Source: Desulfomonilia bacterium | GTDB lineage: Bacteria > Desulfobacterota > Desulfomonilia > UBA1062 | Length of the DNA stretch: 64,000 nt | Direction of reading: 5' to 3' | Assembly (NCBI GenBank): GCA_050014195.1 | Contig: JBEKDT010000002.1 | Location: forward strand, 192,001-256,000 | Part shown: positions 16,197 through 33,235 of the stretch, piece after piece | How positions within the stretch are numbered: position 1 is the stretch's first letter | Layout of the letters: the number at the start of each line of letters is the position of its first letter | Made by a program: the position numbers and the translations under genes | Notes under the pieces: generated by a model | Seen by the model: only the letters and a program-made list of their open reading frames with translations | What the model was told of the DNA's origin: nothing | Databases searched by the model: none

Positions 16197-16370
16197 TGAC
16201 ACAATGTCATGCCGGTGGGCGGATTTTCATTCTTATTTGTCATTTTGTCACAACAAAATCCCGGTAGAAGTGTTCACTTGTCAAAATGACATTTCGCCTT
16301 CAAATATTATCTCATTTATAATCCTAATTTCAATTAGTTACAACGGTTCATCTCGTGGCATGAACATTGC
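16197..16370 (+). promoter_or_regulatory. Sigma54 promoter with three upstream activator boxes and an IHF-like site (copy 1)
   Basis: TGGCATGAACATTGC (GG-N10-GC) at 16356-16370; boxes TGACAcaaTGTCA 16197, TGTCAtttTGTCA 16238, TGTCAaaaTGACA 16279; TTTCAATTAGTTA 16328-16340. Confidence 0.8.
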
Positions 16371-16410
16371 CTTCTCATTCATCAGAGAAATAAAACAAAG
16401 GAGAACGAGA

Positions 16411-16587
16411 ATGATATCACTCTGGATCGTAATTGGTTGCTTGTTCATGACGGGAATCGGGATCAGGTTCATGTACCGCGTGTTGGGGCTCACCCCGGCC
16501 GAAGCAACTGCCGTTTTCGTGCTCATCGTGACGCTGGTGGGTGTTAATTCGGGCCCTGTCAGGCAGATGATCGCACAGCTCTTCTAA
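16411..16587 (+). CDS. 58-aa two-helix membrane protein, cassette gene A (copy 1)
   Basis: AGGAG RBS; 41/58 identical to the paralog at 32676-32852. Confidence 0.85.
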   Translation: MISLWIVIGCLFMTGIGIRFMYRVLGLTPAEATAVFVLIVTLVGVNSGPVRQMIAQLF

Positions 16588-16611
16588 CAAAGGCATACTG
16601 GAGAAGAAGAC

Positions 16612-16851
16612 GTGAAAAAGGCAATAAAAGACAGGTTACCGAGGAAGCTATCCGGCAGGATAGCCAGGATCAGCGCACTCAGTTTTGTGCTGGTTATCAT
16701 GACATTCCTCGGCCTGTATGTGGGTATGTATGTCGACCAGATCACCCACATGGCGCCCAATTTCACGATGCTTGGACTTATAATTGGTATCGTTATAGGG
16801 TTTAAGGGTTTTGTCGAAGAGGTACTGGTAGAAAGGAGAAAGGAATCATGA
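16612..16851 (+). CDS. AtpZ/ATPase gene1-like small membrane protein, cassette gene B (copy 1)
   Basis: G.Y.G..(L/V)D.....P.F...GL..G...GF pattern typical of the AtpZ/AtpI gene1 family; paralog at 32892. Confidence 0.75.
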   Translation: MKKAIKDRLPRKLSGRIARISALSFVLVIMTFLGLYVGMYVDQITHMAPNFTMLGLIIGIVIGFKGFVEEVLVERRKES

Positions 16852-16955
16852 CATTCGTATTCATTGGTATCGGCGCTGTTTCCTTCATTGCCATCACTGT
16901 ACGTTTTGCATCGAAAGTGAGCACGAAAGAGCCCGAAGCATCCCGTGTGAAGTAA
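16848..16955 (+). CDS. 35-aa single-TM peptide, cassette gene C (copy 1; not in ORF track)
   Basis: ATGA overlap with gene B, AGGAG RBS; MTFVFIGIGAVSFIAITVRF... matches the paralog at 33137. Confidence 0.7.
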   Translation: MTFVFIGIGAVSFIAITVRFASKVSTKEPEASRVK

Positions 16956-16990
16956 ATCCTCTTCCCGGACAAAAGTTTTAAAGAAGTTCC

Positions 16991-17022
16991 AAGGGAGGCC
17001 TTTTCTTGAGGCCTCCCTTTTT
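16991..17022 (+). terminator. Rho-independent terminator of cassette copy 1
   Basis: AAGGGAGGCCT-tttcttg-AGGCCTCCCTT followed by TTT. Confidence 0.8.
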
Positions 17023-17130
17023 ATGTCTTTTCATCCTTTGGACATACGTCAACCAAAAATGAAATTTATTTGACGGCACGGCCCTGCTTCGCTTAGGCTT
17101 TTGTTACTATCATTGCTTCAGGAGGGTTCC

Positions 17131-17706
17131 ATGATATCACGGATAGATCACGTGTCGCTGGCAGTCAGAGATATTGATGCAGCGTTGCGCTTCTTCACCG
17201 ATCTCCTGGGCGCCGTACCCGGCGCTTCAGGCAAAGACCCGGGTATGAAGTATTACTGGCAGATCCTCTCTTTAGGCGACCTGAGCAGGATTGAGCTCAT
17301 CACCCCCACCGGAGAAGGGAGCTTCCTGGACAACTTCCTTAAAGACAAGAAGGGCGGCGTGCATCACATCACCCTGCAGACCCCCGACATACAAAAGGCA
17401 AAAGAGGCGCTTGAAGAGCATAACATCCCCTTTTTCGGGTTCACCAACTACGCGGAGATATGGAAGGAGATCTTCATTCACCCGAAGCACGCCTTCGGCG
17501 TGCTTGTGCAGCTCGCTGAGTTCAATGCGGACGACTGGATTTCACCGTCCCTCAGGATGCCTAAGGACACTAAATGGACCATCAAGAAAGACGATGACGG
17601 TGTTCAACTCAAGTTCGCGCACCCGGGAGGCGGCGCGGCAAGTATTGTGTTGAACAAGGAGGATGCCGGGCGGCTCCTCGATGAATTAAAAGAGGCCATT
17701 AAATAA
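17131..17706 (+). CDS. VOC-family protein (methylmalonyl-CoA epimerase-like) with C-terminal extension
   Basis: IDHVSLAV, IELITP, GGVHHITL, FIHPK..FGVLVQL; GGAGG RBS before ATG 17131. Confidence 0.75.
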   Translation: MISRIDHVSLAVRDIDAALRFFTDLLGAVPGASGKDPGMKYYWQILSLGDLSRIELITPTGEGSFLDNFLKDKKGGVHHITLQTPDIQKAKEALEEHNIPFFGFTNYAEIWKEIFIHPKHAFGVLVQLAEFNADDWISPSLRMPKDTKWTIKKDDDGVQLKFAHPGGGAASIVLNKEDAGRLLDELKEAIK

Positions 17707-17710
17707 GACC

Positions 17711-19105
17711 ATGAATGTCCTGATCCATGTGGACAATGCCATAAGAATCTTTGAGGCCGATCTGCCATTAGAGGCAGTGCAGGCCATAGAGGCGGACCTG
17801 ACGCTGCCAAATCCCAAGTGGGAGCAGGTGGAGACCTACAGCCGCAGCCGCAGGCGAAATTTCCAGCCCGAATTCATCAGGTATTATAAAAGGAAGAGTG
17901 GTGTGCTCCTCATGCCCAGGGGCTACATCCACACCCTCCGCTCCCGTCTGAAGGACGCCCCCTGCACCATCGTGGACAAGACCCGCTTATTGCCGAGCGT
18001 TCATTTTTCATTCAAAACGCAATTGCATCCCTATCAGATCTCAGCGGTCAAAGATGTCATCGGCAGGAGATTCGGTGTGCTGGAGGCACCGCCAGGTGCA
18101 GGCAAGACCGTCATGGCCCTAGCCGTCATTGCCCAGAGAAAACAGCCCGCACTGGTGATCGTCCACACCAAGGAGCTCATGTACCAGTGGCACAAGCGCT
18201 CGTACGAATTCCTCGGCATCCCTTTGGACGAGATAGGACTTATCGGCGATGGGAACAGCCAGATAGGCGACAGGCTCACCATTGCCATCATCAACTCGCT
18301 CTATAAAGTAATCGATGATGTCAAGCCTGTCATCGGCCACCTCGTGGTGGACGAGTGCCACCACACACCTGCCCGCACATTCACCGAGGCGGTGAGCCTC
18401 TTCGACAGCACCTTCATGCTGGGGCTTTCTGCCACACCGTATAGGAGGGACAAGCTCACCAAGATCATCTACTTCTATCTAGGCGACCGGGCGCACCAGA
18501 TCCATTCCCACGAACTCCAGGCCATAGAGAAGATCATGCGGGCCAAGCTCATATTGCGACATACCAACTGCGCCTACTACTTCGATGCGGACGAGTACCA
18601 GTACATGATCTCGGCCCTGGTGAACGATGGGAAAAGGAACAAGCTCATCGTGGAAGACGTGGTGAACCGGGTCTTTACACCTGAAAGCGGGATTGCGCTC
18701 GTCATCTCGGACCGGGTTGCCCACTGTGAGGATCTCTTCAATGCCATTACCGGCCGCGGGGTCAAGGCATGCCTGCTCACCGGCTCGGTGCAGGTCAAGG
18801 AGCGGGCCCGGATAGTAGAAGAACTTAACAGAAACCAGGCACAGGTCCTGGTCGCAACAGCCCAGCTCATCGGTGAAGGGTTCGACCTCAAGCAACTATC
18901 CTCGATTTTCCTGGCTACACCGATTAAATTCACCGGCAGGGTCAAGCAGTATATCGGCCGGATCCTCAGGGTGACCGAGGGCAAGGAAGACGCGTTTATC
19001 TTTGACTACCTCGACACCAACGGCATGCTCAAGAACAGCTTCGCCTCCCGCATGTCGGCATACTACGATTTGGGTGTGAAGCTGGATTCTGTTAAAGACT
19101 ACTAG
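17711..19105 (+). CDS. Superfamily II DEAD/DEAH-type helicase (ResIII/SSL2-like)
   Basis: APPGAGKT, DECHH, GLSATP, GEGFD, QYIGRILR. Confidence 0.88.
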   Translation: MNVLIHVDNAIRIFEADLPLEAVQAIEADLTLPNPKWEQVETYSRSRRRNFQPEFIRYYKRKSGVLLMPRGYIHTLRSRLKDAPCTIVDKTRLLPSVHFSFKTQLHPYQISAVKDVIGRRFGVLEAPPGAGKTVMALAVIAQRKQPALVIVHTKELMYQWHKRSYEFLGIPLDEIGLIGDGNSQIGDRLTIAIINSLYKVIDDVKPVIGHLVVDECHHTPARTFTEAVSLFDSTFMLGLSATPYRRDKLTKIIYFYLGDRAHQIHSHELQAIEKIMRAKLILRHTNCAYYFDADEYQYMISALVNDGKRNKLIVEDVVNRVFTPESGIALVISDRVAHCEDLFNAITGRGVKACLLTGSVQVKERARIVEELNRNQAQVLVATAQLIGEGFDLKQLSSIFLATPIKFTGRVKQYIGRILRVTEGKEDAFIFDYLDTNGMLKNSFASRMSAYYDLGVKLDSVKDY

Positions 19106-19184
19106 TGAACAATAATCCATAGCGATATTCACATGATGGAGCAATAATTGAATATACGGTTTTCATTTCATGCAAACTACTTTT

Positions 19185-20198
19185 TTACCGGAACTCGGTT
19201 TCGGTCAACCTTTCCAGGGCACCCTGGCAGGATGATCCTACACCCGCAGTACAGGAGAAGCAGTGATTGCCGATGACGATTGCCCGGGTCTTCAATCTCT
19301 CAAAATCAAAATCATCGATGTGGTTCGGCGTTTTGCCTTCCACCGGCAAGTCCAGCATCTGGTTGAAATCACAATCATACAATCGCCCGTCCCACCCTAC
19401 TGAAACGGTGTTCCGGCACATCAAACAATGAATAGTCGAAGGATTGAATGATGTGTGAAGAACATTCATATAGTCTTCAAAGTTCTCCGACCGGATGAGG
19501 TACTCCAGATACCTGCCTACAGGCGAGTTGACCAGGCAATAGAGGGTATTGAAGACAACCCCATGCTCTCCTTTCAGCCGGGTCTTGTATTCATGTTCCA
19601 GTGCCTGCTGCGCCCCAGGCAGAAAGGCACCAACCGGATTATAGACAAGGTTCAGGATCAAGCCGCTTCCGGGTATGCCATACCCCCTTTCATTCAGCAG
19701 CCGCATGACCTCGATGATGCATCTGAAAACGCCGCCGCCCCTCTGCCTGTTGACCCTATCTTCATGGTAGTCGGGAAGGGAAGCAATGATTTCGACCCTG
19801 TGGTCCGCATAGAGATCAATGAAGTTTTTATATTGTTCGTCGCGGAGGATTACAAGGTTGGTGCGGACCATCAACCGCCGATTCAACGTGGCAGCTTCCC
19901 GGATAAACCAGGGAAGCTCCGGATTCATCTCCGGTGCGCCGCCCGTGATATCTATGGTACCGATCCGATGGGTACGCAGCACTTCCAGGCATTTTTCAAA
20001 CACCCTGCGTCCCATGATTTCCGATCGCTCCGGACCGGCCTGGACATGGCAGTGCCTGCATGAGAGGTTGCAGCGCTTACTCACATTCATCTGGAGTATT
20101 TCAATCGATTCAGATCTCAGCGGAGTGCTGATCCTTTTATGAAACGGGATCCTTACAGGGTTATTATTGAGGATCTCCATTTGCTCCAAAGAAGTCAT
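19185..20198 (-). CDS. arsS: ArsS-like radical SAM protein with Cys-rich C-terminal domain (DUF3641 type)
   Basis: CNLSCRHCH, DITGGAPEMNP, LMCR...YDCDFNQML, HCFSCTAG.GSSC. Confidence 0.85.
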   Translation of the reverse strand: MTSLEQMEILNNNPVRIPFHKRISTPLRSESIEILQMNVSKRCNLSCRHCHVQAGPERSEIMGRRVFEKCLEVLRTHRIGTIDITGGAPEMNPELPWFIREAATLNRRLMVRTNLVILRDEQYKNFIDLYADHRVEIIASLPDYHEDRVNRQRGGGVFRCIIEVMRLLNERGYGIPGSGLILNLVYNPVGAFLPGAQQALEHEYKTRLKGEHGVVFNTLYCLVNSPVGRYLEYLIRSENFEDYMNVLHTSFNPSTIHCLMCRNTVSVGWDGRLYDCDFNQMLDLPVEGKTPNHIDDFDFERLKTRAIVIGNHCFSCTAGVGSSCQGALERLTETEFR

Positions 20199-20199
20199 A

Positions 20200-20535
20200 T
20201 TACATTTCCTTCTTCTTGATAATCTTTCGCATCTGCGTGGAATGAGCCAGGACATCACCCGCTGTCATTGCAGCTCCGACATGTACTGCCTCCATCATCT
20301 CATCACTGGAAACGCTCAGCGAAAGGCATTTATTCGTGTAGGCATCAATGCAGTACGGGCAGTGACGCACAGTAGCCACCGTAAGGGCTATTAATGCCTT
20401 TTCCCGCTCGGTGAGCACGCCGGGTCCTGTTACCTCGGCGTAATATTCAAAGAACTTTTTGCCCTGCTCGGGGGCATACTCCGTTATGTTCGGAAAATCT
20501 TCGAGGTCTTTGGTTTCATAGTAAGGTCTGGACAT
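20200..20535 (-). CDS. AhpD/carboxymuconolactone decarboxylase-like partner of ArsS
   Basis: LTEREKALIAL.V....CPYCIDAY...MMEAVHV; directly upstream of arsS. Confidence 0.85.
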   Translation of the reverse strand: MSRPYYETKDLEDFPNITEYAPEQGKKFFEYYAEVTGPGVLTEREKALIALTVATVRHCPYCIDAYTNKCLSLSVSSDEMMEAVHVGAAMTAGDVLAHSTQMRKIIKKKEM

Positions 20536-20939
20536 AGCAAATCTCCTTTAATATAAAATTACTTCTGCATGTTAAACACCTGTATCACGTGTTTGGCATC
20601 CTTCTTTAAGAAATTTATTTTATAATAGAGTCTCCTCAAGAATAAAACCAGTCTCTTACCTCATCTTGTGGGTTTTGCCACGTTGTCACATTATAGGCAT
20701 AACCGCACTGCTCGCACTAACTTATCGATTTCCAAAGCACACACGGGCGCATCACAAACACTAAGCTGCATACATCACACCAAGGGATTGATGCATGCTC
20801 ATATGCAAAGATCCCCCTATAAAAATCTTCCGCATAAAATCTTCATAGTTCTTTCTTCTTGACTTTCAACCCCGTTGACTTAACGTATATATAACTTAAA
20901 CTAAAGTAGGTTTTTATTAAATGAAAAGAGGCATGAGCC

Positions 20940-22316
20940 GTGAACCTTGACCCCTTGTTCCTCTCCCGCATCCAATTCGCGGTCACTGTTTCCTTTCACA
21001 TCATCTTCCCGTCTCTGACCATTGGACTCTCTCTATGGCTGGCAATGCTCCAGGGCATGTCTCAGGCTACCGGTAATGCCCTGTATCAAAGGCTCTTCGA
21101 TCTCTGGCTTAAGATCTTTACCATACTGTTCGCCATGGGCGTTGTCTCCGGCCTCGTGATGGCGTTCCAGTTCGGCGCCAATTGGAGTGTGATGTCTGTT
21201 AAGACAGGGCCTGTCCTGGGCCCGCTACTCGGTTATGAGGCCTTCACGGCATTCATGCTGGAGGCGACCTTCCTGGGTGTGGTCCTGTACGCACGCAACC
21301 GCGTGCCGCCATGGTTCTATTTCTTTTCCTGCTGCATGATCGCCCTCGGTTCGACCTTGTCGTCCTTCTGGATTCTCTGCAACAACAGCTGGATGCAGGT
21401 GCCGGTGGGTTATGAGATAATAAACGGAAAGATAACCCCGGTTGACTGGAGGGCCATCGTGCTCGGCCCTGTATTCCTGATCCGCTGGCTGCACATGCTG
21501 CTTGCATCTCTCCTGACCACCGGCATGTGCATCCTTGCTGCAGGCGCCTGGTATGTGCTCCGCAATATCCATCGCGCAGAGGCGCGGATCATGCTGGACT
21601 GGGGCCTGGGTTTGGCAGCAGTGCTGATGATCTTTCAGTTCTATCTCGGGGATATAAGCGGCAAGCACATGTATAAGTATCAGCCAGCTAAATTCGCTGC
21701 CATCGAGGCGCGGTGGCAGCATGAGCAGCCGGGTACGGAAGTATGGTTTGCAATCCCCGACGAGAAAAACAAGAGAAATCTCTTTGCCGTCACAACACCC
21801 TATGCAGGCAGTTGGATCGCAACAGGAAGCTGGACCGCGCCTGTTTCCGGACTGAGTGATTTTCCGGAAGAAGACTGGCCGCCCATTCTTATCCCGTTCT
21901 TTTCATTCCGCATCATGGTAGGCCTTGGGTTGTTGATGCTGGCCATCGGCTCGTTCGGCATATTGCTCCGCTTGCAGGGTCGACTGGAGACAACGCGCTG
22001 GTTCCTTTGGAGTGCGATTCTTGCCTTTCCAAGCGGCTTTATTGCCGTCATCATCGGCTGGTTCACTGCCGAAGTCGGCCGTCAGCCCTGGGTGGTATAC
22101 GGGCTCCTGCGTACAGCACAGACCGTGACACCGACACTGACCGGGGCGAATGTGCTCGCAACCCTTGTAGGCTATGTGGTGGTTTATACATTGATCTCCT
22201 CTTTCGGGACCTACTATATCTATGGCGTGCTGCGCAAAGGGCCTTCCAAGGGCGGACCTGAGACGACCGGAGCCTCCGGGACTGTAACCCCCGGCACTCT
22301 TGAGGCAAAGGAGTAA
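20940..22316 (+). CDS. cydA: Cytochrome bd ubiquinol oxidase subunit I (short Q-loop, CioA-like)
   Basis: FHIIF, FQFG, WLHM, QPAKFAAIE, RIMVG, GWFTAEVGRQPW. Confidence 0.95.
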   Translation: MNLDPLFLSRIQFAVTVSFHIIFPSLTIGLSLWLAMLQGMSQATGNALYQRLFDLWLKIFTILFAMGVVSGLVMAFQFGANWSVMSVKTGPVLGPLLGYEAFTAFMLEATFLGVVLYARNRVPPWFYFFSCCMIALGSTLSSFWILCNNSWMQVPVGYEIINGKITPVDWRAIVLGPVFLIRWLHMLLASLLTTGMCILAAGAWYVLRNIHRAEARIMLDWGLGLAAVLMIFQFYLGDISGKHMYKYQPAKFAAIEARWQHEQPGTEVWFAIPDEKNKRNLFAVTTPYAGSWIATGSWTAPVSGLSDFPEEDWPPILIPFFSFRIMVGLGLLMLAIGSFGILLRLQGRLETTRWFLWSAILAFPSGFIAVIIGWFTAEVGRQPWVVYGLLRTAQTVTPTLTGANVLATLVGYVVVYTLISSFGTYYIYGVLRKGPSKGGPETTGASGTVTPGTLEAKE

Positions 22317-22321
22317 GCCCG

Positions 22322-23302
22322 ATGGATGTTACTTGGCTTCCCTTATTCTGGGCAGGCCTGATCGCCTTTGCCATGTTCGTTTATGTTGTCCTTGACGGCT
22401 ACGACCTCGGTATCGGCATTTTGTCCGGTACTACCCGCAATGAGGCTTATCGGGACGCCATGGTGAATGCCGTCTCTCCATTCTGGGACGGGAACGAAGT
22501 CTGGCTGGTCCTTATCGGGGCAAGTCTATTCGGTGCATTCCCCATGGTATATGCAATCTTTCTCCCCGCCTTCTACCTGCCCATAGCGTTGATGCTGCTC
22601 GCCTTGATCTTCCGGGGTGTTGCCATCGAGTTCCGTTATCATGCAAAACAAATGCGCCGGCTCTGGGACTCGGGATTCTTCCTCGGGTCTCTCATTGCGA
22701 GCTTTGTTCAAGGTGCGGCCATCGGCAGGATGGTGCAGGAACTGCCGGTAGCAGGCGGACAATATGCCGGGAGTGCCTTCGAGTGGCTGACACCGTTCTC
22801 CGTGCTCTGTGGAATCGGCCTGGCAATAGGCTATACGCTCCTCGGAGCCGCATGGCTGGTTTTGAAGACGGACGGCGCCTTGCGCGACTGGGCCTATCGC
22901 CGGTTAGGACGGCTGCTTGCAGGTGTCCTTATGATTCTCCTTATTGTCGCCGTGTTCGCACTTACTACGCATCTGCAGGTAAGGGACCGCTGGCTTCAGC
23001 ACTTGTGGCTGGTCATCTTTCCGTTGATCATCTTCCTGGCCTCCATCGGCTTATGGCTCGGGGTCCGCAGACGGAGCGACAGGGTTCCCTACGCCATGGC
23101 CGTTCTCATCTTTCTTGCCGCCTTTTTGTCGCTGGCAGGCAGCTTCTGGCCCTATATGATCCCGTTTACCGTAACGATCGAGACGGCGGCGGCACCGGTG
23201 CAGTCTCTCAGGTTCCTTTTCTACGGGGCGGGTATCATTGTCTTCCCCGTTGTTCTTATCTATACCGGCGTGGTTTATTGGGTTCTGAGGGGAAAGGTTT
23301 AG
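22322..23302 (+). CDS. cydB: Cytochrome bd ubiquinol oxidase subunit II
   Basis: LDGYDLGIG, PFWDGNEVWLV, LIFRGVAIEFR. Confidence 0.95.
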   Translation: MDVTWLPLFWAGLIAFAMFVYVVLDGYDLGIGILSGTTRNEAYRDAMVNAVSPFWDGNEVWLVLIGASLFGAFPMVYAIFLPAFYLPIALMLLALIFRGVAIEFRYHAKQMRRLWDSGFFLGSLIASFVQGAAIGRMVQELPVAGGQYAGSAFEWLTPFSVLCGIGLAIGYTLLGAAWLVLKTDGALRDWAYRRLGRLLAGVLMILLIVAVFALTTHLQVRDRWLQHLWLVIFPLIIFLASIGLWLGVRRRSDRVPYAMAVLIFLAAFLSLAGSFWPYMIPFTVTIETAAAPVQSLRFLFYGAGIIVFPVVLIYTGVVYWVLRGKV

Positions 23303-23314
23303 AAGGCTAGAGAA

Positions 23315-24460
23315 TTGCTCTCATACCCACCTCTTCTTCTCATTGCCGGGGCCAAAGGCGCAGTAGGTTCAACGGTAGCGGCTGCTATTTCAGCGATGAA
23401 AAAGGACCCGGATACAGTCCTCCCCTGGCTGACCACGGCACCTTTGTGTAATCACCTTGGTCCCTTCGGGGGTATGGAATTCTCCGGATGGGATGCTTCC
23501 CCCGAATCAATCAATCAGGCCATCGAATACCACAAGGTCCTCCCAAATAAATCCCTCCTTTATGAAGAGTATCTGGGCAAGATCCGGATTCATCAGGCCC
23601 CTTCGGGCGAACTGCCCCTTCATGCGCAGGTTGAACAGTTGATAGGGGATATTGAGGGTTTCAAGGCACTCTATCCCAAGACCCATCCGGTCCTGATCAA
23701 CCTTCTGCCGGCATGCAGGACGATCGATCTTTCGGGATTGGACCGGCTGGATCGGCTGTATTCGCATACGGATTCAACAAAATTCCCCGATCTGGCCTAT
23801 GCCCTTGCTGCAATCTTAACCGGTATCCCGGTCGTGAATTTCACATCCAATGCCCTCGAGCTGCCCGTGATCGTCGAAGAGGCGCTTAAGGCGGGCGTCC
23901 CTGTGTGCGGCCGTGACGGGAAGACCGGTCAGACCTACCTGAAGGTAGTGCTCGCTTCGGCCCTGAAGGCCCGCAGCCTTCAGGTTGACGGATGGTACAG
24001 TTTGAATATACTCGGCAACGAAGACGGCAGGAATCTTGCCGATCCCACGAAGGCATCAGGCAAAGTGGCCAACAAAACCGGGTTGCTGGAAGAGGTTCTC
24101 GGATATAAGGTTGGCAGGCAATATGGAACTGATTCCCATAAGGTCGTTATCGACTATTATCCACCCAGAGGTGATTGCAAAGAGGCGTGGGATGTCATCG
24201 ACTTTGCAGGCCTCTTCGGCCTGCCCATGAGCCTCAGGCTGAACCTGCAGGCGCGCGACTCCATCCTGGCAGCCCCCCTTGTCATCGACCTGGCCCGCTG
24301 GATGGCCGCCCTGCATGCTGCAGGCCGTTCAGGCCTGGTTCCGGAGTTGGGCTTCTATTTTAAGAAACCCCTGGGCCCCAATCCACCGGTGACCTTCCAG
24401 GATCAACTCGCAGCGCTTGATCGATTGGAAGTTGTTTGCAAGGGGCATATAAATAGTTGA
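23315..24460 (+). CDS. ino1: Myo-inositol-1-phosphate synthase family protein
   Basis: GRDGKTGQT, NILGNEDG, GDCKEAWD, RDSILAAPLVIDL, YFKKP. Confidence 0.82.
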   Translation: MLSYPPLLLIAGAKGAVGSTVAAAISAMKKDPDTVLPWLTTAPLCNHLGPFGGMEFSGWDASPESINQAIEYHKVLPNKSLLYEEYLGKIRIHQAPSGELPLHAQVEQLIGDIEGFKALYPKTHPVLINLLPACRTIDLSGLDRLDRLYSHTDSTKFPDLAYALAAILTGIPVVNFTSNALELPVIVEEALKAGVPVCGRDGKTGQTYLKVVLASALKARSLQVDGWYSLNILGNEDGRNLADPTKASGKVANKTGLLEEVLGYKVGRQYGTDSHKVVIDYYPPRGDCKEAWDVIDFAGLFGLPMSLRLNLQARDSILAAPLVIDLARWMAALHAAGRSGLVPELGFYFKKPLGPNPPVTFQDQLAALDRLEVVCKGHINS

Positions 24461-25376: not shown

Positions 25377-25380
25377 CTCT

Positions 25381-26175
25381 TTGAATTATTCGATGCCCCC
25401 CAATCAGGATTCAAAACATTCTCTGAAGAAACCCGGGGAAGACACCTACTTCGGTTTCCGCAAGGTCCCTGTCCGGGAGAAGGCCGGATACGTACTCCGG
25501 CACTTCAACACCATAGCCCTCAAGTACGATTTCATGAACACCATCTTAAGCCTCGGACTTCACTACCTCTGGAAACGTTTGTCCGTAAAGGCCTTGGTGT
25601 TGAAGCCGGGGGACTTGGTGATCGATGTATGCGGTGGCACTGCAGACCTCTCTATCCTTGCCGCAAGGGCTGTGGGCGGCAGAGGCCGGGTCGTTCTCTA
25701 TGACATCAACCGGGCCATGATGGAAGGGGGAAGGCCCAAGGTTGCAAGGACCTTACTTGCAAAGAGAATCCTTTATGTCCAGGGGGATGCGGAATGCATG
25801 TGTTTTCTTGAAGGCAGTTTCGATGCGGCAATGGTGGGCTTCGGGATCAGGAACCTGACCAATATGGAGAAGGGGCTTGCGGAGATGTACCGGGTACTCA
25901 AACCCGGGGGCAAGATGATGTGCCTTGAGTTCTCCCTTCCCACATCTTCATGGTTCCGCCTCCTCTATGATTTCTATTCTTTTCACCTCATGCCCCTTGC
26001 CGGGCGACTCCTGGCCGGTACTCGCGAGGCATATCTCTACCTCCCCGAATCAATCCGCAAGTTCCCGCAGCCGGATGTATTTGCCGCTATGCTCAAAGGT
26101 ACCGGGTTTTCCGCAGTGGAGTACCAAAGGCTTACCAACGGGATTGCAGTCATTTATACCGGGGTAAAGGCATGA
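25381..26175 (+). CDS. ubiE: UbiE/MenG-family C-methyltransferase
   Basis: YDFMNTILSLG.H..WK, DVCGGTAD, FGIRN, RVLKPGG..CLEFS, YLYLPESI; TTG start after GGAGG. Confidence 0.88.
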   Translation: MNYSMPPNQDSKHSLKKPGEDTYFGFRKVPVREKAGYVLRHFNTIALKYDFMNTILSLGLHYLWKRLSVKALVLKPGDLVIDVCGGTADLSILAARAVGGRGRVVLYDINRAMMEGGRPKVARTLLAKRILYVQGDAECMCFLEGSFDAAMVGFGIRNLTNMEKGLAEMYRVLKPGGKMMCLEFSLPTSSWFRLLYDFYSFHLMPLAGRLLAGTREAYLYLPESIRKFPQPDVFAAMLKGTGFSAVEYQRLTNGIAVIYTGVKA

Positions 26176-26768
26176 AGCTGAACTGGGCGGAGCGCCTGGC
26201 GGTCAATAACCCCATAAGGCCTCTGCAACAGCGCCTTGAGATCGGCTGGATGAAGAAAAATATCCGTCTCAACCCTAACGCCCTTGTCTTGGAGGTAGGG
26301 TGCGGCAGGGGGGCAGGGTCTTATCTTATCAAGAAGATGTTTGATCCTGCCTTTGTCCATGCCATGGATCTTGATATTCGGATGATCCGAAAGGCGCATG
26401 ACTATCTCTCCCCTGAAAAAAGGAATGGGATTTCTTTTTTTGTCGGCGACGTGGTCCGGCTGCCCTACCGAGACAGCACCATGGATGCCGTGTTCGGGTT
26501 CGGGGTCCTCCACCATGTCCCGGACTGGCAAGAGGCCTTGGCCGAGATCGTAAGGGTATTGAAGGTCGGCGGGACCTACTTCTTCGAGGAGCTCTACCCA
26601 ACGCTTTACCAGAACATTATCACCAGGCACATCCTCCTCCATCCCACTGAGAACCGTTTCCGCAGTCAAGACCTGAAAGAGGCCCTGAAAAATGCGGGCC
26701 TGGAGCTGAAAAATTATTTAGAGATCCCGAAGCTGGAAATCTTCGGGTATGCGACCAAACAGGCGTAG
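26172..26768 (+). CDS. Class I SAM-dependent methyltransferase
   Basis: VLEVGCGRG, GVLHHV, RVLKVGG; ATGA overlap with ubiE. Confidence 0.85.
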   Translation: MKLNWAERLAVNNPIRPLQQRLEIGWMKKNIRLNPNALVLEVGCGRGAGSYLIKKMFDPAFVHAMDLDIRMIRKAHDYLSPEKRNGISFFVGDVVRLPYRDSTMDAVFGFGVLHHVPDWQEALAEIVRVLKVGGTYFFEELYPTLYQNIITRHILLHPTENRFRSQDLKEALKNAGLELKNYLEIPKLEIFGYATKQA

Positions 26769-26965
26769 ACTACGAGAAATTATCGGAACGGATATCAGGA
26801 GAATATCCATATATCTCTCCCAAAAACTTTTACTTTTCAGTCCTCTTTGTAACCGGTCATTTATAGAAGAAATCTACAGTTGATAGTAGGCAGTTGAGAC
26901 CGGTGATTTATCGCAGGAATCTCCACTTTTCCATGATAAATATATCTCAATGATTTCTTATTAAT

Positions 26966-28912
26966 TCATTGATGTAAGTTGTTGATAAAGTCGGGACCCT
27001 TCTTAAGAACATCGGAAGATTTTTTGTTTGCTAGCAATTTTATCAATTTTTGTTGAGCATCCCAATAATTTGGATCTGTAATTAATACTTTTCTATATTG
27101 CTCAACTGCCTTATCAATTTTGCCTTGTGATAAAAGTGCGTTTCCGAGATTATAATGTGCTTCCGATAAATTTGGCTTAATCTGAAGTGCATTATTAAAG
27201 TAATGAATTGCTTCGTTAACTCTACCTTGAGATTCTAAACAAATACCCATGTTTACATTCGCAGATGCATTTTCAGATTTTATCTCCAGGACCTTAGAGA
27301 ACATCTTGATTGCTCCATCAAATCTTTTCTGATGCATGTATGCAACACCAAGACTATTATAAGCATCTTCATAAGTCGGATCAATTAATATAGCCTTGGT
27401 ATAATAACTAACTGCTTTTGATATATCACCTTTCATTATAAATATTTCACCCATTATTAGATTTATATATTTATCATTGGGAGCTACTTTCAAGGCCTCA
27501 TTACAATGTTTTGCTGCGCCGTCAAGATCACCTTCACCAATTAGGGTCTTTGCAAGCCAAAGGTGGGCTACATCATTATTAACAGTCACCTTGATGCAAT
27601 GCTCAAAAAGAGTATCACTATTTTTCCAATACCCCACTTGTATCCACGAATATATCATAAGAATAGAAAGGCTTGCCCCTGCTAATGTAAACAAGTAGTA
27701 TTTTTGAAGTCGCCATTTTTCGAGTAATTCAGGTACACCCCAGGCAACCATGATAAATATACCAATAAAAGGGACATAGGCCCATCGATCAGCCATAGCC
27801 GGCCAAATGCCCGACTGGTATAATCCACTTACTGGTATAAGGGTACCAGCATACCAAAGCCACCCTACGAGAAGATAAGGATGTCTTCGGGAGGTTACAA
27901 TAACTATAGCACTGATAAATACAATCAAGAGAAAGGCTCCGAAACTCTGCCAAAATGGAATAGATTGTGGGAAGGGATAATATACCGCCAGGTTATGTGG
28001 CCAGATCGCCTTCCCTATGTATGCAATATATGAAACTAGGGCATTACCAATCCTTAAACCTATTGGGATTTGTTCATATGATATAATATTAACATATATT
28101 GATAGTTTAAGCGATAATGTGGAGACATAGACGGAGAGAAAAGATAAAAGAATTAAAGGGATTTTATCAAGGATTACCCGTGATTTCAGTAAGTCACCAA
28201 GACTACTTATGACAGATTTATGAGATTGGATAGAACTCCCAGATCCTATATGACTAAACGAGAGACGATCAAGAGGCCAATAGTCAAGTAATAGTAATAC
28301 AAAGGGTAATGTTATGAGCATGGGTTTTGCGAGAAGTCCCATGATAAAACTGATAACTACTAGTAGATATCGAATAAGGGATGGACGCTTTGTATAATTG
28401 AAGTAGGTAAGCATGACTATAAACCAAAAACAGGTGCTTAAGAGATTCTTCCTCTCTGCAATCCATGCTACAGTATCCACATTGATTGGATGGAGTGCAA
28501 AGAGCGCTGCTACAAAGGCACTCTTCCATTGAGATCCTGTCATAACTCTAAGTACTAAAAACAAGAGTAAAGTATTTATGATGTGGAGAAAAAGGTTAGT
28601 AAGATGATGCTTGCCTGCATCCAGCCCCCACAGTTGTATATCAAGCATGTGTGAAATCAATGTGAGAGGATGCCAGTAGTTTTTTTCTTCGCCAGAAAGA
28701 CTGAATGCCCACTTGATATTTTCTAGAGTAATCCCTGAAATAATGTGCTCATTTTCTGTAACATAAAAATTGTCATCAACGCTAACAAAGTCGTTATTCT
28801 TGGTTTGCAAGTATACGGAGCAGGTTAATATTATAAGAAATATAGAGATAATAATAGCGTGTTTTTCAAAAATATCATATTTTTGTTTTATGTCTTTGTT
28901 AAGGTAATTCAT
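26966..28912 (-). CDS. Multi-pass membrane protein with C-terminal TPRs (TMTC/GT-C glycosyltransferase-like)
   Basis: DD..YV, WHPLT..SH, FALHP, ADRWAY motifs, many TM helices, about 6 TPRs; markedly AT-rich. Confidence 0.8.
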   Translation of the reverse strand: MNYLNKDIKQKYDIFEKHAIIISIFLIILTCSVYLQTKNNDFVSVDDNFYVTENEHIISGITLENIKWAFSLSGEEKNYWHPLTLISHMLDIQLWGLDAGKHHLTNLFLHIINTLLLFLVLRVMTGSQWKSAFVAALFALHPINVDTVAWIAERKNLLSTCFWFIVMLTYFNYTKRPSLIRYLLVVISFIMGLLAKPMLITLPFVLLLLDYWPLDRLSFSHIGSGSSIQSHKSVISSLGDLLKSRVILDKIPLILLSFLSVYVSTLSLKLSIYVNIISYEQIPIGLRIGNALVSYIAYIGKAIWPHNLAVYYPFPQSIPFWQSFGAFLLIVFISAIVIVTSRRHPYLLVGWLWYAGTLIPVSGLYQSGIWPAMADRWAYVPFIGIFIMVAWGVPELLEKWRLQKYYLFTLAGASLSILMIYSWIQVGYWKNSDTLFEHCIKVTVNNDVAHLWLAKTLIGEGDLDGAAKHCNEALKVAPNDKYINLIMGEIFIMKGDISKAVSYYTKAILIDPTYEDAYNSLGVAYMHQKRFDGAIKMFSKVLEIKSENASANVNMGICLESQGRVNEAIHYFNNALQIKPNLSEAHYNLGNALLSQGKIDKAVEQYRKVLITDPNYWDAQQKLIKLLANKKSSDVLKKGPDFINNLHQ

Positions 28913-29387
28913 TGCGTTAACTTACTATCAGCAAATCCATTATTGACAGAAAAGAAATTTATCTAAATCCTACAGATTATAGTAACCCTTTTCATTAAGT
29001 TATCTTCCTCCTAAGTTAGAGATATCCAATAAATAAGTCAAGTCTCCGATTTTATGTAAATTAGCATCTCCGATATAGCGCTACGCTACTAGAAGATCTT
29101 CCATCTACATGGTCATACCCGTTCATCTTCAATAGAAAAAATACATAGGAGAAAACATAGATTATGCCAGAGGCAACGAACTGATTTGGATTTTTCAAAA
29201 TCATAGATTTCGTGCCATGAGCAACGTTCTGGTATGAAGAGATAGGCTGCGTAGCTTTCAACTCAAGATCATCAGTTTTCAGACATCATAAAACCGAGAT
29301 GAAATCATATCTTTTATTATTTCTTTTGGTTATCATATGATTAAGGGGGTGTGCCATGCCCTACCATAAACATAGGCAAGGGAAGAT

Positions 29388-30194
29388 GTGTGTATGATGT
29401 TCTTCATGAGGAGGCTCAAAAACAGGGTCATTGCGAAGGTGATTACCGGTCTCCCGGCTTTGGCTAAAGGATTCATCGAAGCATATAAGCCATGGGAATC
29501 TGAGGACATCCCGTGGACTCTTGTGGAGAAGCCTTTGGTACAGAGTACTGTTGCCATCGTCACTACTGCGGGTGTGCATCGTAAAGACCAAAAACCCTTC
29601 AACATGCATGATAAAAACGGTGACCCTTCTTTTCGGGAGATCGACGGCAATACCCCGCTGCGAGATCTCATGATCACCCATGACTATTATGACCACACCG
29701 ATGCCGAAAAAGACTTGAACATCGTCTTCCCCATAGAACGTCTGCAGGAATTCGCTTCAGAGGGTATTATTGGAAAAGTAGCGGATGCGCATTACACATT
29801 CATGGGTCACATCATGGGGCCGCACATCTACACGCTCATGGAGATGAGTACCCCGGAGGTGGCTGCCAGATTAAAGAAGAAGGAAGTGGACTATGTTTTG
29901 TTGACACCGGGTTGAGCTATCTGCAATCAGTCCGTGGGATTGATTCAGCGGGGTATCGAGGCTGCCGGTATACCCACCATCGGGATCTCCATTGTCAGGC
30001 AGTATACGCAAAAGGTTAAACCGCCCAGGACGATCTTCCTCAAGTGGCCCTTCGGGCACCCGCTGGGTGAGCCGAATCACATTGATCAACAACGTGCCGT
30101 TCTGCGTAAGGCATTTGAAGCCCTGATGGAAATTAAAACACCCGGAACAATTATTGATGTACCTTGGCGATGGAAAAGGGAAAGCTATGGGTAG
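29388..30194 (+). CDS. PrdB/GrdB-like selenoprotein (glycine/sarcosine/betaine/proline reductase selenoprotein B family), UGA=Sec at 29913
   Basis: ORFs 29388-29915 and 29934-30194 are in frame; read-through gives LTPG-U-AICNQSVGLIQR (UxxC); TTAGVH, GDPSFR, D.N.VFP, PFGHPLG motifs. Confidence 0.88.
29918..29955 (+). promoter_or_regulatory. Putative bacterial SECIS hairpin
   Basis: Immediately 3' of the UGA: AATCAGTCC-gtg-GGATTGATT stem with a G-containing apical loop, extendable by ATCTGC pairing with the G-rich segment after it. Confidence 0.7.
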
Positions 30195-30455
30195 CCGAAA
30201 TGAAACTCCGCGCAGCAAGCTTAAGCGGTTTATAAGGAGTATTTTCCTTTTTCTCCTCTCCTGAATCCACAATTCGTCAGGACAGACGAATTGGATGTAC
30301 TTTACGTTCACCCTTCAGGGTGAGGGACATGGATGTCCCGAATCACTCCCACCAGGAGAGGAAGATTTTGTACAAACCCCTGTATTGGTTTTTTCATCCG
30401 ATCATAGGATCCCGGGATAGAACACGTGCTCTCTTTCCTTCTGGATTGTAACGGC

Positions 30456-31169
30456 TCATTCCTTTTCAAGGGGAAAGGTCAAGGTTGCCCCATACCACCC
30501 TATGACCGCCACAATGGGGACCAGCGAAAGGATCAAAAAGAAATAGACAATACCCTCCGTGGCCAAGGAGGTGAAGACATCGGGAAACAAGACCCGCCAG
30601 AGAAAGACAATGATGGAGACTGCCATGAGGATGCCGGATAAGAATATCTTGATCCTGACCGGCCTCATGGATTTTGCCTGATAATTGAGCCACCAAGTGA
30701 AATAGCCGGTCAGGACAGCCGGAACGGAAAAAAGGATGCCGGCTCCCAGACAGTGGAATGCTGTTGTCTCAAAAGATTTCACATCGGTGAGGAGATAAAG
30801 AAGGCTGAAGAGTGCCGGCGAGATCATGAATACGATCGGGAAGTGCACCAGCATGGGGTGCGGGTGGCGGCGAAGAAAGGGAAACCGCTCCAACACTATT
30901 TCTAATGGATTGGGTAAAGACCTTAACGCCTTATCTTTCTTCCTGAAGGTCCCAACAAGGTAAAATTTATCCAGGACCTCCGGGCCATGGGGCGCGGCCT
31001 CGATATCTGTGGTAAGGTCGCAGCCGGCATGGTGGCGTTTCATGTGAAGCCCTGCCTTCCACAGCTTGCTCGCACTGACGTCGATCACCCTGCCCTTGTG
31101 GGCTATGTACACAGGCTGTCCATCTTTACCGTTGAATGCCGAGAGAGATTCCAGGTCGAATTCCTTCAT
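30456..31169 (-). CDS. Cytochrome b5-like heme-binding domain fused to a DUF2231-type membrane domain
   Basis: FNGKDGQP.YIA..G.V.DVS...W..G.H..RH.AG.DLT...APHG, then HPMLVHFPI and TM helices. Confidence 0.8.
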   Translation of the reverse strand: MKEFDLESLSAFNGKDGQPVYIAHKGRVIDVSASKLWKAGLHMKRHHAGCDLTTDIEAAPHGPEVLDKFYLVGTFRKKDKALRSLPNPLEIVLERFPFLRRHPHPMLVHFPIVFMISPALFSLLYLLTDVKSFETTAFHCLGAGILFSVPAVLTGYFTWWLNYQAKSMRPVRIKIFLSGILMAVSIIVFLWRVLFPDVFTSLATEGIVYFFLILSLVPIVAVIGWYGATLTFPLEKE

Positions 31170-31228
31170 ATCGTCCTTTCATGATAGGGCAAACGGATAA
31201 TCCCAAGCCGACAGTTCCCTTTCGTTAT

Positions 31229-32242
31229 TCATAAGACCACCCAGCTCAGCAGTGTTACCATGAGCATGGACAATGGATAATAGCTTGCCCGGTTGAAAAG
31301 GCGCACGGCCTCTCCTGAATCTTCGGCCCGATAAAGACGGTAGCCGGGGAGAAGAAGCAAATAAAAAGCAGAAAACAATGCACCCAGGATATAGAGATAA
31401 TTTAAGTGCCTCGGCGAAAGCCAGAACATGGCCAGACTCATGGCCGCAGTGATCACAAGAGAAAAGAAGATAATATGAGTGGCTCGCTGGGCACCGAAGC
31501 GTACAGGGATAGTCCTGGCATGTATCTTTCTGTCAATATCCAGATCGGACAGATCGTTGGGCACATTCTGCCCCCCGATCTCCCAGAAAAAAAGCCAGAG
31601 GAATATCGTTACCACAATATGCGTCGAAGGATTCGGATTTACGGCAAACACAGCAGCAACGGGCCCTGATGTCTTAACTAATCCGCTGATGACACTCCGC
31701 ATATGGGTGATTTTCAGGAGATAGCAATAGATCACCTCCAGGAAAGCGGCCGAGAGAAAAATGACAGGGCAAACAGGGTTAAGGAGGAAGGCCCCTACCA
31801 GTGCCAGCACTGCCCAGGCAGAAGTCCAGAACAATGCTTCCTTGTAACTCAGCATCCCCTGAGCCAGGGGATGGCGTACGAAGACACTATCCAGGTCCGG
31901 TCTTGATTCGCTTGGTGTGCTTGAACACATAATCTCCTGGTCAACACGGTAATCGATGAGGTCATTGAGCGCATACACTGCCGTGTAACCCGAGAAGGCG
32001 GTTATCAGGCCTAAGGCCAGCACCTCGAATGAAGGAAAGGTATTTAGGCACAGAAGGGCCGCCAGACCCGGGGTGGCTAAATCCAGCAATAAGTGGGGGG
32101 TCCTGGAAAGGGCCAAGAAAAGGTTCAGCCGGGAGAGGCCCGCCTGGTCCGACAGCAACGTGGTCTTCAAATTGTGCTCACTCCCCAGGAAAGATGGCAG
32201 CAGCCTTTCATCTCTACATCCACCATGCCCATTTTTCATCAA
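31229..32242 (-). CDS. UbiA-family prenyltransferase
   Basis: NDLIDYRVD and NDLSD..D Asp-rich motifs, RHPLAQG, RTIPVRFG, many TM helices; start uncertain. Confidence 0.85.
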   Translation of the reverse strand: MMKNGHGGCRDERLLPSFLGSEHNLKTTLLSDQAGLSRLNLFLALSRTPHLLLDLATPGLAALLCLNTFPSFEVLALGLITAFSGYTAVYALNDLIDYRVDQEIMCSSTPSESRPDLDSVFVRHPLAQGMLSYKEALFWTSAWAVLALVGAFLLNPVCPVIFLSAAFLEVIYCYLLKITHMRSVISGLVKTSGPVAAVFAVNPNPSTHIVVTIFLWLFFWEIGGQNVPNDLSDLDIDRKIHARTIPVRFGAQRATHIIFFSLVITAAMSLAMFWLSPRHLNYLYILGALFSAFYLLLLPGYRLYRAEDSGEAVRLFNRASYYPLSMLMVTLLSWVVL

Positions 32243-32454
32243 TGCCTAATACTTTGTATATGATTTTTGATTGTCCAACAATTACTATACCATGGTCTTT
32301 CAATAAATTTTGCCATGCAACACAGTTATATAATATGAGTTCGTACATGGATGGGAAGCCCTACCCTATTTCCTCATACAGGTGTAGACCATGTCCCGGT
32401 CCGGTAATACGGGCATAGCGAACTGCACCCCTTCACTCTCCAATTCCACGGCAT

Positions 32455-32627
32455 TGCCACTTTGTCACATTTTGACCATGGTTACCCTACGGTTTTGCCA
32501 ATTTGTTCATGCCCGGTATCTTCATTGATGCACTTGTGCCATTTTGGCAAAAATATGGTGCGAGAGAATATTTATAGTTAGTATAATCATTGAGTTATAA
32601 ACCATGATCATCTGGCATGGCCCTTGC
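32455..32627 (+). promoter_or_regulatory. Sigma54 promoter with three upstream activator boxes and an IHF-like site (copy 2)
   Basis: TGGCATGGCCCTTGC at 32613-32627; boxes TGCCActtTGTCA 32455, TGCCAattTGTTC 32496, TGCCAtttTGGCA 32537; AATCATTGAGTTA 32585-32597. Confidence 0.8.
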
Positions 32628-32675
32628 CTTATGTTAGATAGAAAGAAAAAAACAAACCCCAAGGAGGGTAAGACA

Positions 32676-32852
32676 ATGATGACATTATGGATCGTTCTCG
32701 GCGCACTGTTCATGACCGGCATAGGCATCAGGTTCACCTACAAGGTATTGGGACTCACCCCGGCCGAAGCAACCGCAGTATTCGTCCTGGTGGTCACCCT
32801 GATCAGCATCAACACCGGCCCGGCACGCGAGATCCTCATGAACCTGTTCTAA
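32676..32852 (+). CDS. 58-aa two-helix membrane protein, cassette gene A (copy 2)
   Basis: AAGGAGG RBS; paralog of 16411-16587. Confidence 0.85.
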   Translation: MMTLWIVLGALFMTGIGIRFTYKVLGLTPAEATAVFVLVVTLISINTGPAREILMNLF

Positions 32853-32891
32853 GGCCACAGCGGGATAGCAAAACGGATAAGGAGGAAGGCC

Positions 32892-33131
32892 ATGAAACGG
32901 ATAAAGACAAAGAAAGAGAAGATCGAAAGGGCACTGGCCAACAGGCTCAGCAGGATCAGCGCATACAGTCTGGTGCTCGTTACGATGACCTTCCTCGGGC
33001 TGTACGGCGGGATGGAGCTTGACAAGATGACGGGCATGACGCCCAACTTCACCTTTGTCTGCCTGATCGTCGGCATCGCCATGGGCTTCAAGGGCTTCAT
33101 CCAGGAAGTCATCGCAGAGAGAAAGGCGTAA
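32892..33131 (+). CDS. AtpZ/ATPase gene1-like small membrane protein, cassette gene B (copy 2)
   Basis: AGGAGG RBS; RISA.S.VLV.MTFLGLY.GM..D..T.M.PNFT...GFKGF shared with copy 1. Confidence 0.75.
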   Translation: MKRIKTKKEKIERALANRLSRISAYSLVLVTMTFLGLYGGMELDKMTGMTPNFTFVCLIVGIAMGFKGFIQEVIAERKA

Positions 33132-33136
33132 GTACC

Positions 33137-33235
33137 ATGACGGCTCTATTCATCACCATGGGCATCATCACACTTGTAGCCATGACCGTAAGGTTCCCCG
33201 GACACGGCAGGCACAAAGTACAAAGGGTATCCTAG
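33137..33235 (+). CDS. 32-aa single-TM peptide, cassette gene C (copy 2; not in ORF track)
   Basis: MTALFITMGIITLVAMTVRFPGHGRHKVQRVS; same position and MT..FI..G.....A.TVRF pattern as copy 1. Confidence 0.65.
   Translation: MTALFITMGIITLVAMTVRFPGHGRHKVQRVS

Follow-up and report, generated by a model that had tools for sequence, protein, structure and literature searches.

What a bacterium may do with an operon that encodes three very small, predicted membrane proteins and nothing else, and why it should keep several copies of it, is the question raised by the locus discussed here. The locus lies in a stretch of 64,000 nucleotides (nt) from a Desulfomonilia bacterium, hereafter called the window, which corresponds to positions 192001-256000 of contig C2 (JBEKDT010000002.1) in a genome of 4.2 Mb and 29 contigs (G000 below). 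A preliminary description of the window had noticed a cassette present twice, composed of upstream boxes, an integration host factor (IHF)-like site, a -24/-12 promoter and three genes, A, B and C, and had considered it a candidate undescribed system. The comparative analysis presented here indicates that these cassettes almost certainly represent a real family of sigma-54 operons, two of whose products recall, to different degrees, membrane components of ATP synthases.

Structure of the cassettes

Both units are found in the window in the same orientation, at the positions where they had been described; the sizes of their products (B of 79 amino acids, aa, and C of 32-35 aa) and all the regulatory elements are likewise confirmed. 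Their features are the following, with boxes and IHF-like sites given without strand.

16197-16209: copy 1, distal upstream box TGACACAATGTCA (TGNCA-N3-TGNCA)
16238-16250: copy 1, middle upstream box TGTCATTTTGTCA
16279-16291: copy 1, proximal palindrome TGTCAAAATGACA, 77 nt before the TGG of the -24 element
16327-16343: copy 1, IHF-like AT-rich site (family consensus TATCAAT.AGTTATAA, -29 to -13 from TGG)
16356-16370, + strand: copy 1, sigma-54 -24/-12 promoter TGGCATGAACATTGC
16411-16587, + strand: gene A1, 58 aa, predicted two-helix hairpin with a c-subunit-like helix 2 and the invariant Glu31
16612-16851, + strand: gene B1, 79 aa, AtpZ/AtpQ family by sequence (PF09527, 38.0 bits, cut-off 26.6)
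16848-16955, + strand: gene C1, 35 aa, one predicted helix followed by RF and a basic tail; its ATG overlaps the stop codon of B (ATGA)
16991-17019, + strand: copy 1, strong intrinsic terminator, a 12-pair (12-bp) stem with a T run
32455-32467: copy 2, distal upstream box TGCCACTTTGTCA
32496-32508: copy 2, middle upstream box TGCCAATTTGTTC, imperfect
32537-32549: copy 2, proximal palindrome TGCCATTTTGGCA, 76 nt before TGG
32584-32600: copy 2, IHF-like site ATAATCATTGAGTTATA
32613-32627, + strand: copy 2, sigma-54 -24/-12 promoter TGGCATGGCCCTTGC
32676-32852, + strand: gene A2, 58 aa
32892-33131, + strand: gene B2, 79 aa, PF09527 (38.9 bits)
33137-33235, + strand: gene C2, 32 aa

The two A proteins are identical at 41/58 residues, as had been reported (70.7% over 58), and the two B proteins at 57% of 74 residues, while C1 and C2 share 50% identity in their first 20 residues and are alike nowhere else. 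The 260 nt upstream of the genes are about 56% identical between the copies (168/300 aligned columns), and the positions of the boxes are nonetheless kept. The earlier suggestion that both copies are under selection despite the divergence of their intergenic DNA is borne out by the ratio of nonsynonymous to synonymous substitution rates (dN/dS), which amounts to 0.125 in A and 0.20 in B between copy 1 and copy 2; in C the synonymous rate (dS) is saturated.

The cassette is not confined to the window. A tblastn search of the genome revealed five A-B-C cassettes (C2:208411 and C2:224676, which are copy 1 and copy 2, then C15:47151, C8:44118 and C7:36495), so that the two copies originally described stand, and the idea of a simple duplication gives way to that of a multi-copy family, with up to 13 profile matches (A and A' types together) in one relative. 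Among the five copies dN/dS ranges from 0.11 to 0.22 for A and from 0.17 to 0.30 for B; for C it is 0.2-0.64 in the 6/10 pairs with computable dS, the others being saturated. In C, a hydrophobic helix, RF and a basic tail succeed one another across dozens of loci. Judging from such comparisons of sequences, non-coding DNA or chance open reading frames (ORFs) are excluded as an explanation of A, B and C. All three are predicted to encode small membrane proteins, and the positive charges of their loops suggest that A has both termini outside, B both termini inside and C its N terminus outside. Neither A nor C has a family match in Pfam, NCBIfam, PHROGs or PADLOC (for A, nothing beyond noise at E<=10 in Pfam and NCBIfam).

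A survey of loci from metagenome-assembled genomes (MAGs), in which gene order was assigned heuristically, extends this picture: 52 of 71 complete A genes are followed by B and C, in line with the conserved order previously proposed, 5 stand in A-B units, 6 in A-C units and 8 alone. B is thus lacking in some units in which A is always present, indicating that A, and not B, is the core of the unit. In the MAG loci where C follows A directly, A ends in LLG or MMG (59 aa). In one locus (L060:1721-2089, contig JAKLDU010000062.1) two A genes are arranged in tandem behind a single sigma-54 promoter.

Promoter and upstream regulatory sequences

The window of 64 kb contains exactly two occurrences of the strict sigma-54 pattern TGGCAYNNNNNTTGC, each 55-63 nt upstream of a gene A; 0.5 are expected, and at least two matches were obtained in 7/100 shuffled sequences. 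In the whole genome TGGCAY-N5-TTGC precedes A by 55-64 nt in 5/5 cassettes, all of which also have the IHF-like site and three upstream TGNCA-N3-TGNCA boxes. The palindrome TGYCA-N3-TGRCA, placed 76-77 nt before TGG, is found only at the five cassettes among 46 promoter-like sites genome-wide. The -24 GG and -12 GC dinucleotides have the canonical spacing and are conserved over the homologous loci, and rpoN is present in the genome.

When 71 distinct upstream regions (5 from this genome and 66 from MAGs) were aligned by anchoring them on TGG, four conserved blocks appeared at fixed distances. The promoter block is near-invariant, ccTGGCAcG.cccTTGCctTaT; the TATCAAT.AGTTATAA block lies at -29 to -13 and fits the IHF consensus, WATCAANNNNTTR; the two others are the proximal box (about -78 to -64) and a further box at about -121 to -108. 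Individual loci also show a third, distal one, near -157. In the TGNCA half-sites the middle base varies, with the partner half-site varying to match. The regulatory architecture is therefore one that is conserved across genera, and a regular-expression search found the strict promoter motif at 63/71 complete A genes of the MAG loci. With a length of about 0.75-0.95 kb, every unit is a sigma-54 operon complete in itself.

The loose 13-mer form of the upstream box shows no enrichment in the genome, with 63 occurrences against about 64 expected. The only other cluster of boxes, at C7:176034-176077, was rejected as a related site, since it consists of iteron-like repeats inside a gene. In that region (C7:176000-176090) four tandem repeats of about 20 bp, GGGGTGACAnnnTGTCA, lie within a minus-strand ORF of 348 aa; they resemble iterons, as in a replication origin, or else a regulator array, and have no relation to the cassettes.

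Some of the copies share more than their architecture. Copy 2 (C2b) and the C15 cassette have in common a 756-bp block with 96.4% identity, extending from -222 to +531 relative to the ATG of A, beyond which the flanks are unrelated; a 951-bp block of 80% identity, from -222 to +713, is common to the C7 and C8 cassettes. For A and B the dS between C2b and C15 is 0.07 and 0.02, respectively, whereas C has a value of about 1.1. Low values in A and B together with this high value in C point to a recent duplication or conversion event that would have spanned the enhancer, A and B, and not C. No terminal inverted repeats flank the cassettes.

Protein B and the AtpZ/AtpQ family

The product of the second gene can be assigned to a described family. 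B1 and B2 score 38.0 and 38.9 bits against PF09527 (ATPase_gene1), whose gathering cut-off is 26.6, and B', a diverged form treated below, scores 30.6; in a scan of the whole genome all five B and two B' proteins exceed the cut-off. PF09527 has nine genes in this genome in total, namely atpZ on contig C1, atpQ on C2 (C2:13171), the five B and the two B'. When the B profile was compared with the AtpZ of the same genome, hhalign gave a probability of 97% (E 1e-10). B resembles the F-type AtpZ (35% identity, E 7e-6) more than it does AtpQ (E 0.22). Six residues are invariant in 36 B sequences, L29, V30, G40, D44, P51 and F53, of which Asp44 lies at the outer end of helix 1. By its sequence, B is thus a member of the AtpZ/AtpQ family. 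It does not reach the cut-off of NCBIfam TIGR02230 (putative F0F1-ATPase subunit, a hypothetical equivalog), with 19.0 and 12.4 bits against 46.7, and none of the cassettes lies beside F- or N-type genes, the atp-operon placement that is typical of AtpZ and AtpQ.

The name given by Pfam to PF09527 is 'Putative F0F1-ATPase subunit Ca2+/Mg2+ transporter'. In Bacillus pseudofirmus OF4 atpZ enhances Mg2+ acquisition, according to passages of two papers that cite Hicks et al. 2003 (PMC4453477; PMC3543383). AtpI is cited as assisting c-ring assembly in a passage of Dibrova et al. 2010 (PMC2881411), where atpQ is also said to occur outside N-ATPase operons.

Protein A and the c subunits of ATP synthases

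In 104/104 distinct A sequences nine residues are invariant, G9, G15, G17, R19, F20, G26, E31, N46 and P49. When the A profile was searched against 177,635 distinct PDB sequences, 18 matches were obtained at E<=10, and 18/18 were ATP-synthase c subunits, including those of Yarrowia (the best, E 0.0022), Acetobacterium woodii c1 (E 0.022), bovine and I. tartaricus. The matches span residues 20-52 of A, aligned with helix 2 of the c subunits, and in the two alignments shown Glu31 falls on the ion-binding Glu. The same relation emerges inside the genome: among 52,409 six-frame ORFs the best non-self match of a hidden Markov model (HMM) built from A alone is the orphan c subunit at C15:123893-124282 (E 0.011), ranking above the diverged A' protein (E 0.021), and all four c-subunit genes are within the top 15; in the reverse search with a c-subunit HMM, A genes are 4 of the 5 best non-self matches (E 0.12-0.53). 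In the alignments the pattern E-x4-(F/Y)-x12-P has equal spacing in c subunits, A' and A, with a distance of 18 from E to P. Thus A displays what characterizes c subunits, a helix 2 with a conserved membrane carboxylate and a C-terminal Pro at fixed spacing.

Several observations weigh against kinship with c subunits and against a link with the ATPase. PF00137 is matched by 0/26 A and A' sequences at E<=10; hhalign comparisons of A with c subunits reach a probability of only 18-32% over 30-31 columns, and with the N-ATPase c subunit 0.8%. The A' profile found no c subunit in PDB, and the A' and c profiles align only in their signal peptides. A has no R-N/Q-P loop, the one that contacts F1: in the c alignment an invariant Pro is preceded by a near-invariant R-N, while A has the sequence RFTYKVLGLTP, with about 8 residues fewer separating Arg from Glu. 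Since the likeness is limited to one hydrophobic helix, convergence is possible; since Glu31 lies 2-3 residues past the predicted turn, it may not be a buried ion site. ATPase genes are absent within about 6 kb of all five cassettes, whose neighbours vary from copy to copy. On balance, A may be described, by resemblance, as a loop-less mini c subunit that is not a PF00137 member, and it probably descended from a c subunit.

Structural prediction of A with AlphaFold2 gave a helical hairpin, with helices at 2-25, 29-46 and 48-57 and a mean confidence score (pLDDT) of 83.4. Fold searches with this model returned only generic helical matches, with a Z of 5.9 at best, and nothing in Foldseek at E<=0.001, a result that is uninformative for a hairpin of 58 aa. 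Other identities were considered and set aside: DUF2768, suggested by the ESM Atlas with a score of 0.84, too low to follow, where the other matches were unnamed clusters; AtpI, ruled out with an hhalign probability of 0.3%; and AtpR, ruled out because no Pfam or NCBIfam match beyond noise was found at E<=10.

Diverged units and orphan c subunits

Besides the five cassettes, the genome carries a diverged A'-B' unit, in which A' (91-97 aa, with a signal-peptide-like N terminus and a hairpin) is followed by B' (87-88 aa, PF09527), with a TGGCAC-N5-TTGC site upstream. Of the four c-subunit genes of the genome, one is F-type, one is N-type and two are orphans (C15:123908 and C14:78624). The relevant loci are listed below.

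C15:45664-46424, - strand: complete A'-B' unit
C23:13080-13409: A' only
C8:44867-45292: B' with a remnant of A' (last 26 codons)
C15:123816-125630 (locus L132:2817-4629): orphan c subunit and downstream ORF
C14:78610-80456 (locus L133:2610-4456): orphan c subunit and downstream ORF

The A' type is the form present in MAGs named as Syntrophales, in which the -12 element is often TTTCA rather than TTGC. The proposal that A' is itself a relative of c subunits is unsupported by profile methods, its basis being the E/F-Y/P spacing and the match with the A HMM. The orphan c subunits match PF00137, are 125 and 122 aa long, have signal-peptide-like N termini and lie outside any atp operon; such an N terminus, also present in A', is common in the c subunits of this phylum. 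Each orphan is followed by an ORF of 429-431 aa; the one on C15 matches dCache_1 and no Pfam output domain. The C15 orphan has its own sigma-54 site, TGGCATGTCTATTGC, and the same holds for its relatives (5/5 loci, from G000 and four other genomes). Relatives (63-88% identity), looked for in a sample of 151 genomes, came solely from families that likewise possess A or A'.

The boxes upstream of A'-B' (TTnAACGTTTCnTTnAA) are unlike those of the A-B-C cassettes; those of A' and of the orphan c genes have TTGAACG-type half-sites. This difference in box type implies at least two regulators.

Distribution

A single A query detected the gene in 21/24 genomes of the same family and in 0/16 of the sister family, and with the A profile the figures become 49/51 (Desulfomonilia, UBA1062-type MAGs) versus 0/70; the two family genomes without a profile match are 78% and 96% complete. 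Matches per genome range from 1 to 13, A and A' types being counted together, so that they are not copy numbers. In an even sample of the phylum 19/401 genomes match the profile: G000, five more of its family, eleven of four other families (f58, f68, f87 and f110, mostly with A') and two marginal cases (E 5e-4 and 5e-3). Close homologues of A come from Desulfomonilia and 'Deltaproteobacteria' MAGs and the distant A' from Syntrophales MAGs, all of them labelled hypothetical at NCBI; the named loci derive from MAGs such as UBA1062, UBA6087 and Phox-21. Among 1.84 billion representative proteins only 32 clusters match A at E<=0.001. The A family is narrow. The DNA of copy 1 occurs in 24 sequencing runs, all of peat or wetland metagenomes and recorded as DNA; no RNA run is listed among them.

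Genomic neighbourhood and candidate regulators

Copy 1 is flanked (window 14350-16152 and 17101-19105) by a gene for a fused double-permease amino-acid ABC transporter (600 aa) on one side and by a VOC/glyoxalase-family gene and a ResIII/DEAD helicase gene on the other. These neighbours recur at 15-16/79 MAG loci; therefore the site of copy 1 is ancestral. In the 79 loci the recurrent neighbours are only those of the conserved chromosomal sites of copy 1 and of copy 2 (the latter AsmA-like), and no regulator or ATPase partner recurs beside the cassettes.

About 24 candidate genes for sigma-54 activators (enhancer-binding proteins) are present in the genome, one of which is found next to a cassette. 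The C15 cassette lies tail to tail with an operon whose products are a sensor kinase with a HAMP domain, a coiled-coil protein of 203 aa (a putative lipoprotein, judging from its lipoprotein-like N terminus) and, encoded at C15:47870-49237, an activator with receiver, AAA+ and HTH_8 domains; all three are below the NCBIfam equivalog cut-offs. Orthologues of the activator (61-97% identity) occur in 22/24 genomes of the family and in 0/16 of the sister family, a distribution that parallels that of the cassette. Their adjacency to a cassette or A' is limited to G000, G003 and G007; these genomes are close kin, so that it counts as about one event. This NtrC-type protein is a candidate regulator of the cassettes, and no more is claimed for it here.

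Proposed function and alternative explanations

The pathway that we propose would start with a signal, upon which an NtrC-type enhancer-binding protein would bind the three TGNCA-N3-TGNCA boxes; bending of the DNA by IHF, bound a short way upstream of the -24 element, would be followed by transcription of A-B-C by the sigma-54 polymerase. A, the 58-aa hairpin, would be a c-like proteolipid that has lost the cytoplasmic polar loop and has retained helix 2 with the Glu31 carboxylate; B, a two-helix protein of the kind that heads F- and N-type atp operons, would act as its partner or assembly helper, and the one-helix peptide C as an accessory. A may oligomerise as proteolipids do, helped by B, whose role is suggested by analogy. 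Two outcomes can be envisaged: the assembly might act on cations by binding or conducting them (H+/Na+, or Mg2+, the ion reported for AtpZ), or it might dock on the rotor-stator of Fo/No and alter the behaviour of the ATPase. A signal-gated module formed by a mini c subunit, an AtpZ-like partner and a one-helix peptide, acting as a cation-binding or -conducting assembly or as a modulator of F-/N-type ATPases, is the interpretation that we put forward tentatively, giving it a little less than an even chance. An extension of it, in which orphan c subunits, A' and the mini c subunits with their AtpZ-like helpers would constitute a signal-gated toolkit of rotor parts that remodels the c ring of F-/N-type ATPases or builds free proteolipid-ring cation pores, seems improbable.

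The same cassettes might instead be an inducible module for envelope or membrane stress with no link to the ATPase, a logic analogous to that of the sigma-54-driven phage-shock genes, in which case the likeness of A to c subunits would be convergence and B a generic two-helix protein. Stand-alone operons in varied neighbourhoods would suit it, as would the low hhalign scores of A with c subunits and the absence of a Pfam match, and one cassette has as neighbours a sensor kinase, a putative lipoprotein and an NtrC-type regulator, in an order resembling that of the envelope-sensing QseE-QseG-QseF. However, the PDB matches of the A profile are c subunits without exception, the best-match relation is reciprocal within the genome, B scores over the curated PF09527 cut-off, and the unit includes no PspA-like or chaperone gene; a stress module is therefore considered rather unlikely.

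B has also to be considered on its own account, since its Pfam name would suit a device for the uptake of divalent cations (Mg2+/Ca2+), induced by their shortage, in which B would work like the Bacillus AtpZ and A and C would be accessory. The tie of atpZ to Mg2+ acquisition in B. pseudofirmus OF4, in the passages mentioned above (PMC4453477, PMC3543383), and the position of the invariant Asp44 at the outer end of helix 1 are consistent with this; however, the Mg2+ role is known from one organism, and B is missing from the 6 A-C and 8 A-only units of the 71, in which A is always there, making such a device distinctly unlikely. The small size and hydrophobicity of the products, their multiple copies, the discrete duplicated blocks (from -222 to about +530 or +710) and the 96% identity of C2b and C15 over A and B with C diverged, which suggests exchange at the level of the cassette, could also recall a spreading dormancy or competition cassette, silenced by its dependence on sigma-54, with A or C as a small membrane-depolarising toxin and B as immunity protein or partner. 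Against it stand the old syntenic site of copy 1, strong purifying selection on every copy, the lack of matches in PADLOC and of anything significant in PHROGs, and the failure to find terminal inverted repeats; we regard a toxin system as very improbable.

Comparison with known systems

The mini c subunit and AtpZ-like partner invite comparison with the F-type operon of the same genome, which has the order atpZ-atpI-atpB-atpE (C1:237884-239723). B is, by its sequence, homologous to AtpZ, A resembles the c subunit AtpE in helix 2 and in where the carboxylate lies, and A is, by prediction, a two-helix hairpin like AtpE. The cassette differs in having no genes for the a, b and F1 subunits or for AtpI, in the length of A (58 aa, without polar loop), in the order A then B, in the additional peptide C, in sigma-54 control and in its five copies. 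A complete canonical N-ATPase operon, atpDCQRBEFAG, is also present at C2:8000-16000 (locus L134), about 180 kb upstream of the window. Cassette and N-ATPase operon both pair an AtpQ-type protein with a second small membrane protein, which in the N-ATPase is thought to act on the c ring, as stated in a passage of the paper by Dibrova et al. (PMC2881411). Conversely, AtpR is described with three helices and two Arg residues, A is not AtpR, and the cassettes are unlinked to the N-ATPase.

Atypical c subunits can change the stoichiometry of the rotor, and hybrid c rings offer another term of comparison: the A profile matches the c1 chain of A. woodii (PDB 4bem) with the E value given above. That subunit is a duplicated full-length hairpin encoded in the atp operon, whereas A is a single shortened hairpin lacking the F1-contact loop, and the entry of A into a ring would be conjectural. 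For regulation an analogy is offered by the qrr genes of Vibrio, which are multi-copy sigma-54 genes under one NtrC-type regulator, LuxO, with sites TTGCA-N3-TGCAA. In both cases several small dispersed genes or units have each a sigma-54 promoter and 13-bp palindromic upstream sites of 5-3-5 structure; however, qrr genes encode small RNAs, while the cassettes encode three proteins under purifying selection.

A stand-alone, multi-copy sigma-54 operon combining a mini c subunit with an AtpZ-type protein and a peptide of one helix was not found described in the literature searched, which was largely without subscription journals and supplements. The earlier view of an undescribed system holds in this respect for the A-B-C operon; its make-up is not wholly undescribed, given that B belongs, by its sequence, to PF09527 and A is like helix 2 of c subunits. 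Since the parts tie to known ATP-synthase families, the unit is not categorically new.

Significance

The cassette family is confined to uncultured lineages, which restricts present claims. Even without a link to the ATPase it would represent a sharply defined regulon, in which five enhancer-promoter architectures are nearly identical, and would serve well as a model in the search for signal and regulator in an uncultured lineage. If A is a working mini c subunit with an AtpZ-type partner, membrane parts of the ATP synthase would have been recruited into a separate, transcriptionally gated device, providing a handle on the function of AtpZ/AtpQ and on proteolipid hairpins that act outside the rotary ATPase. 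The less probable toolkit of rotor parts would, if true, mean a changed ion-to-ATP gearing or blocked futile rotation in energy-limited anaerobes. A functional mini c subunit would thus bear on the way in which syntrophic and peat anaerobes, living near the thermodynamic limit, may tune their membrane energetics.

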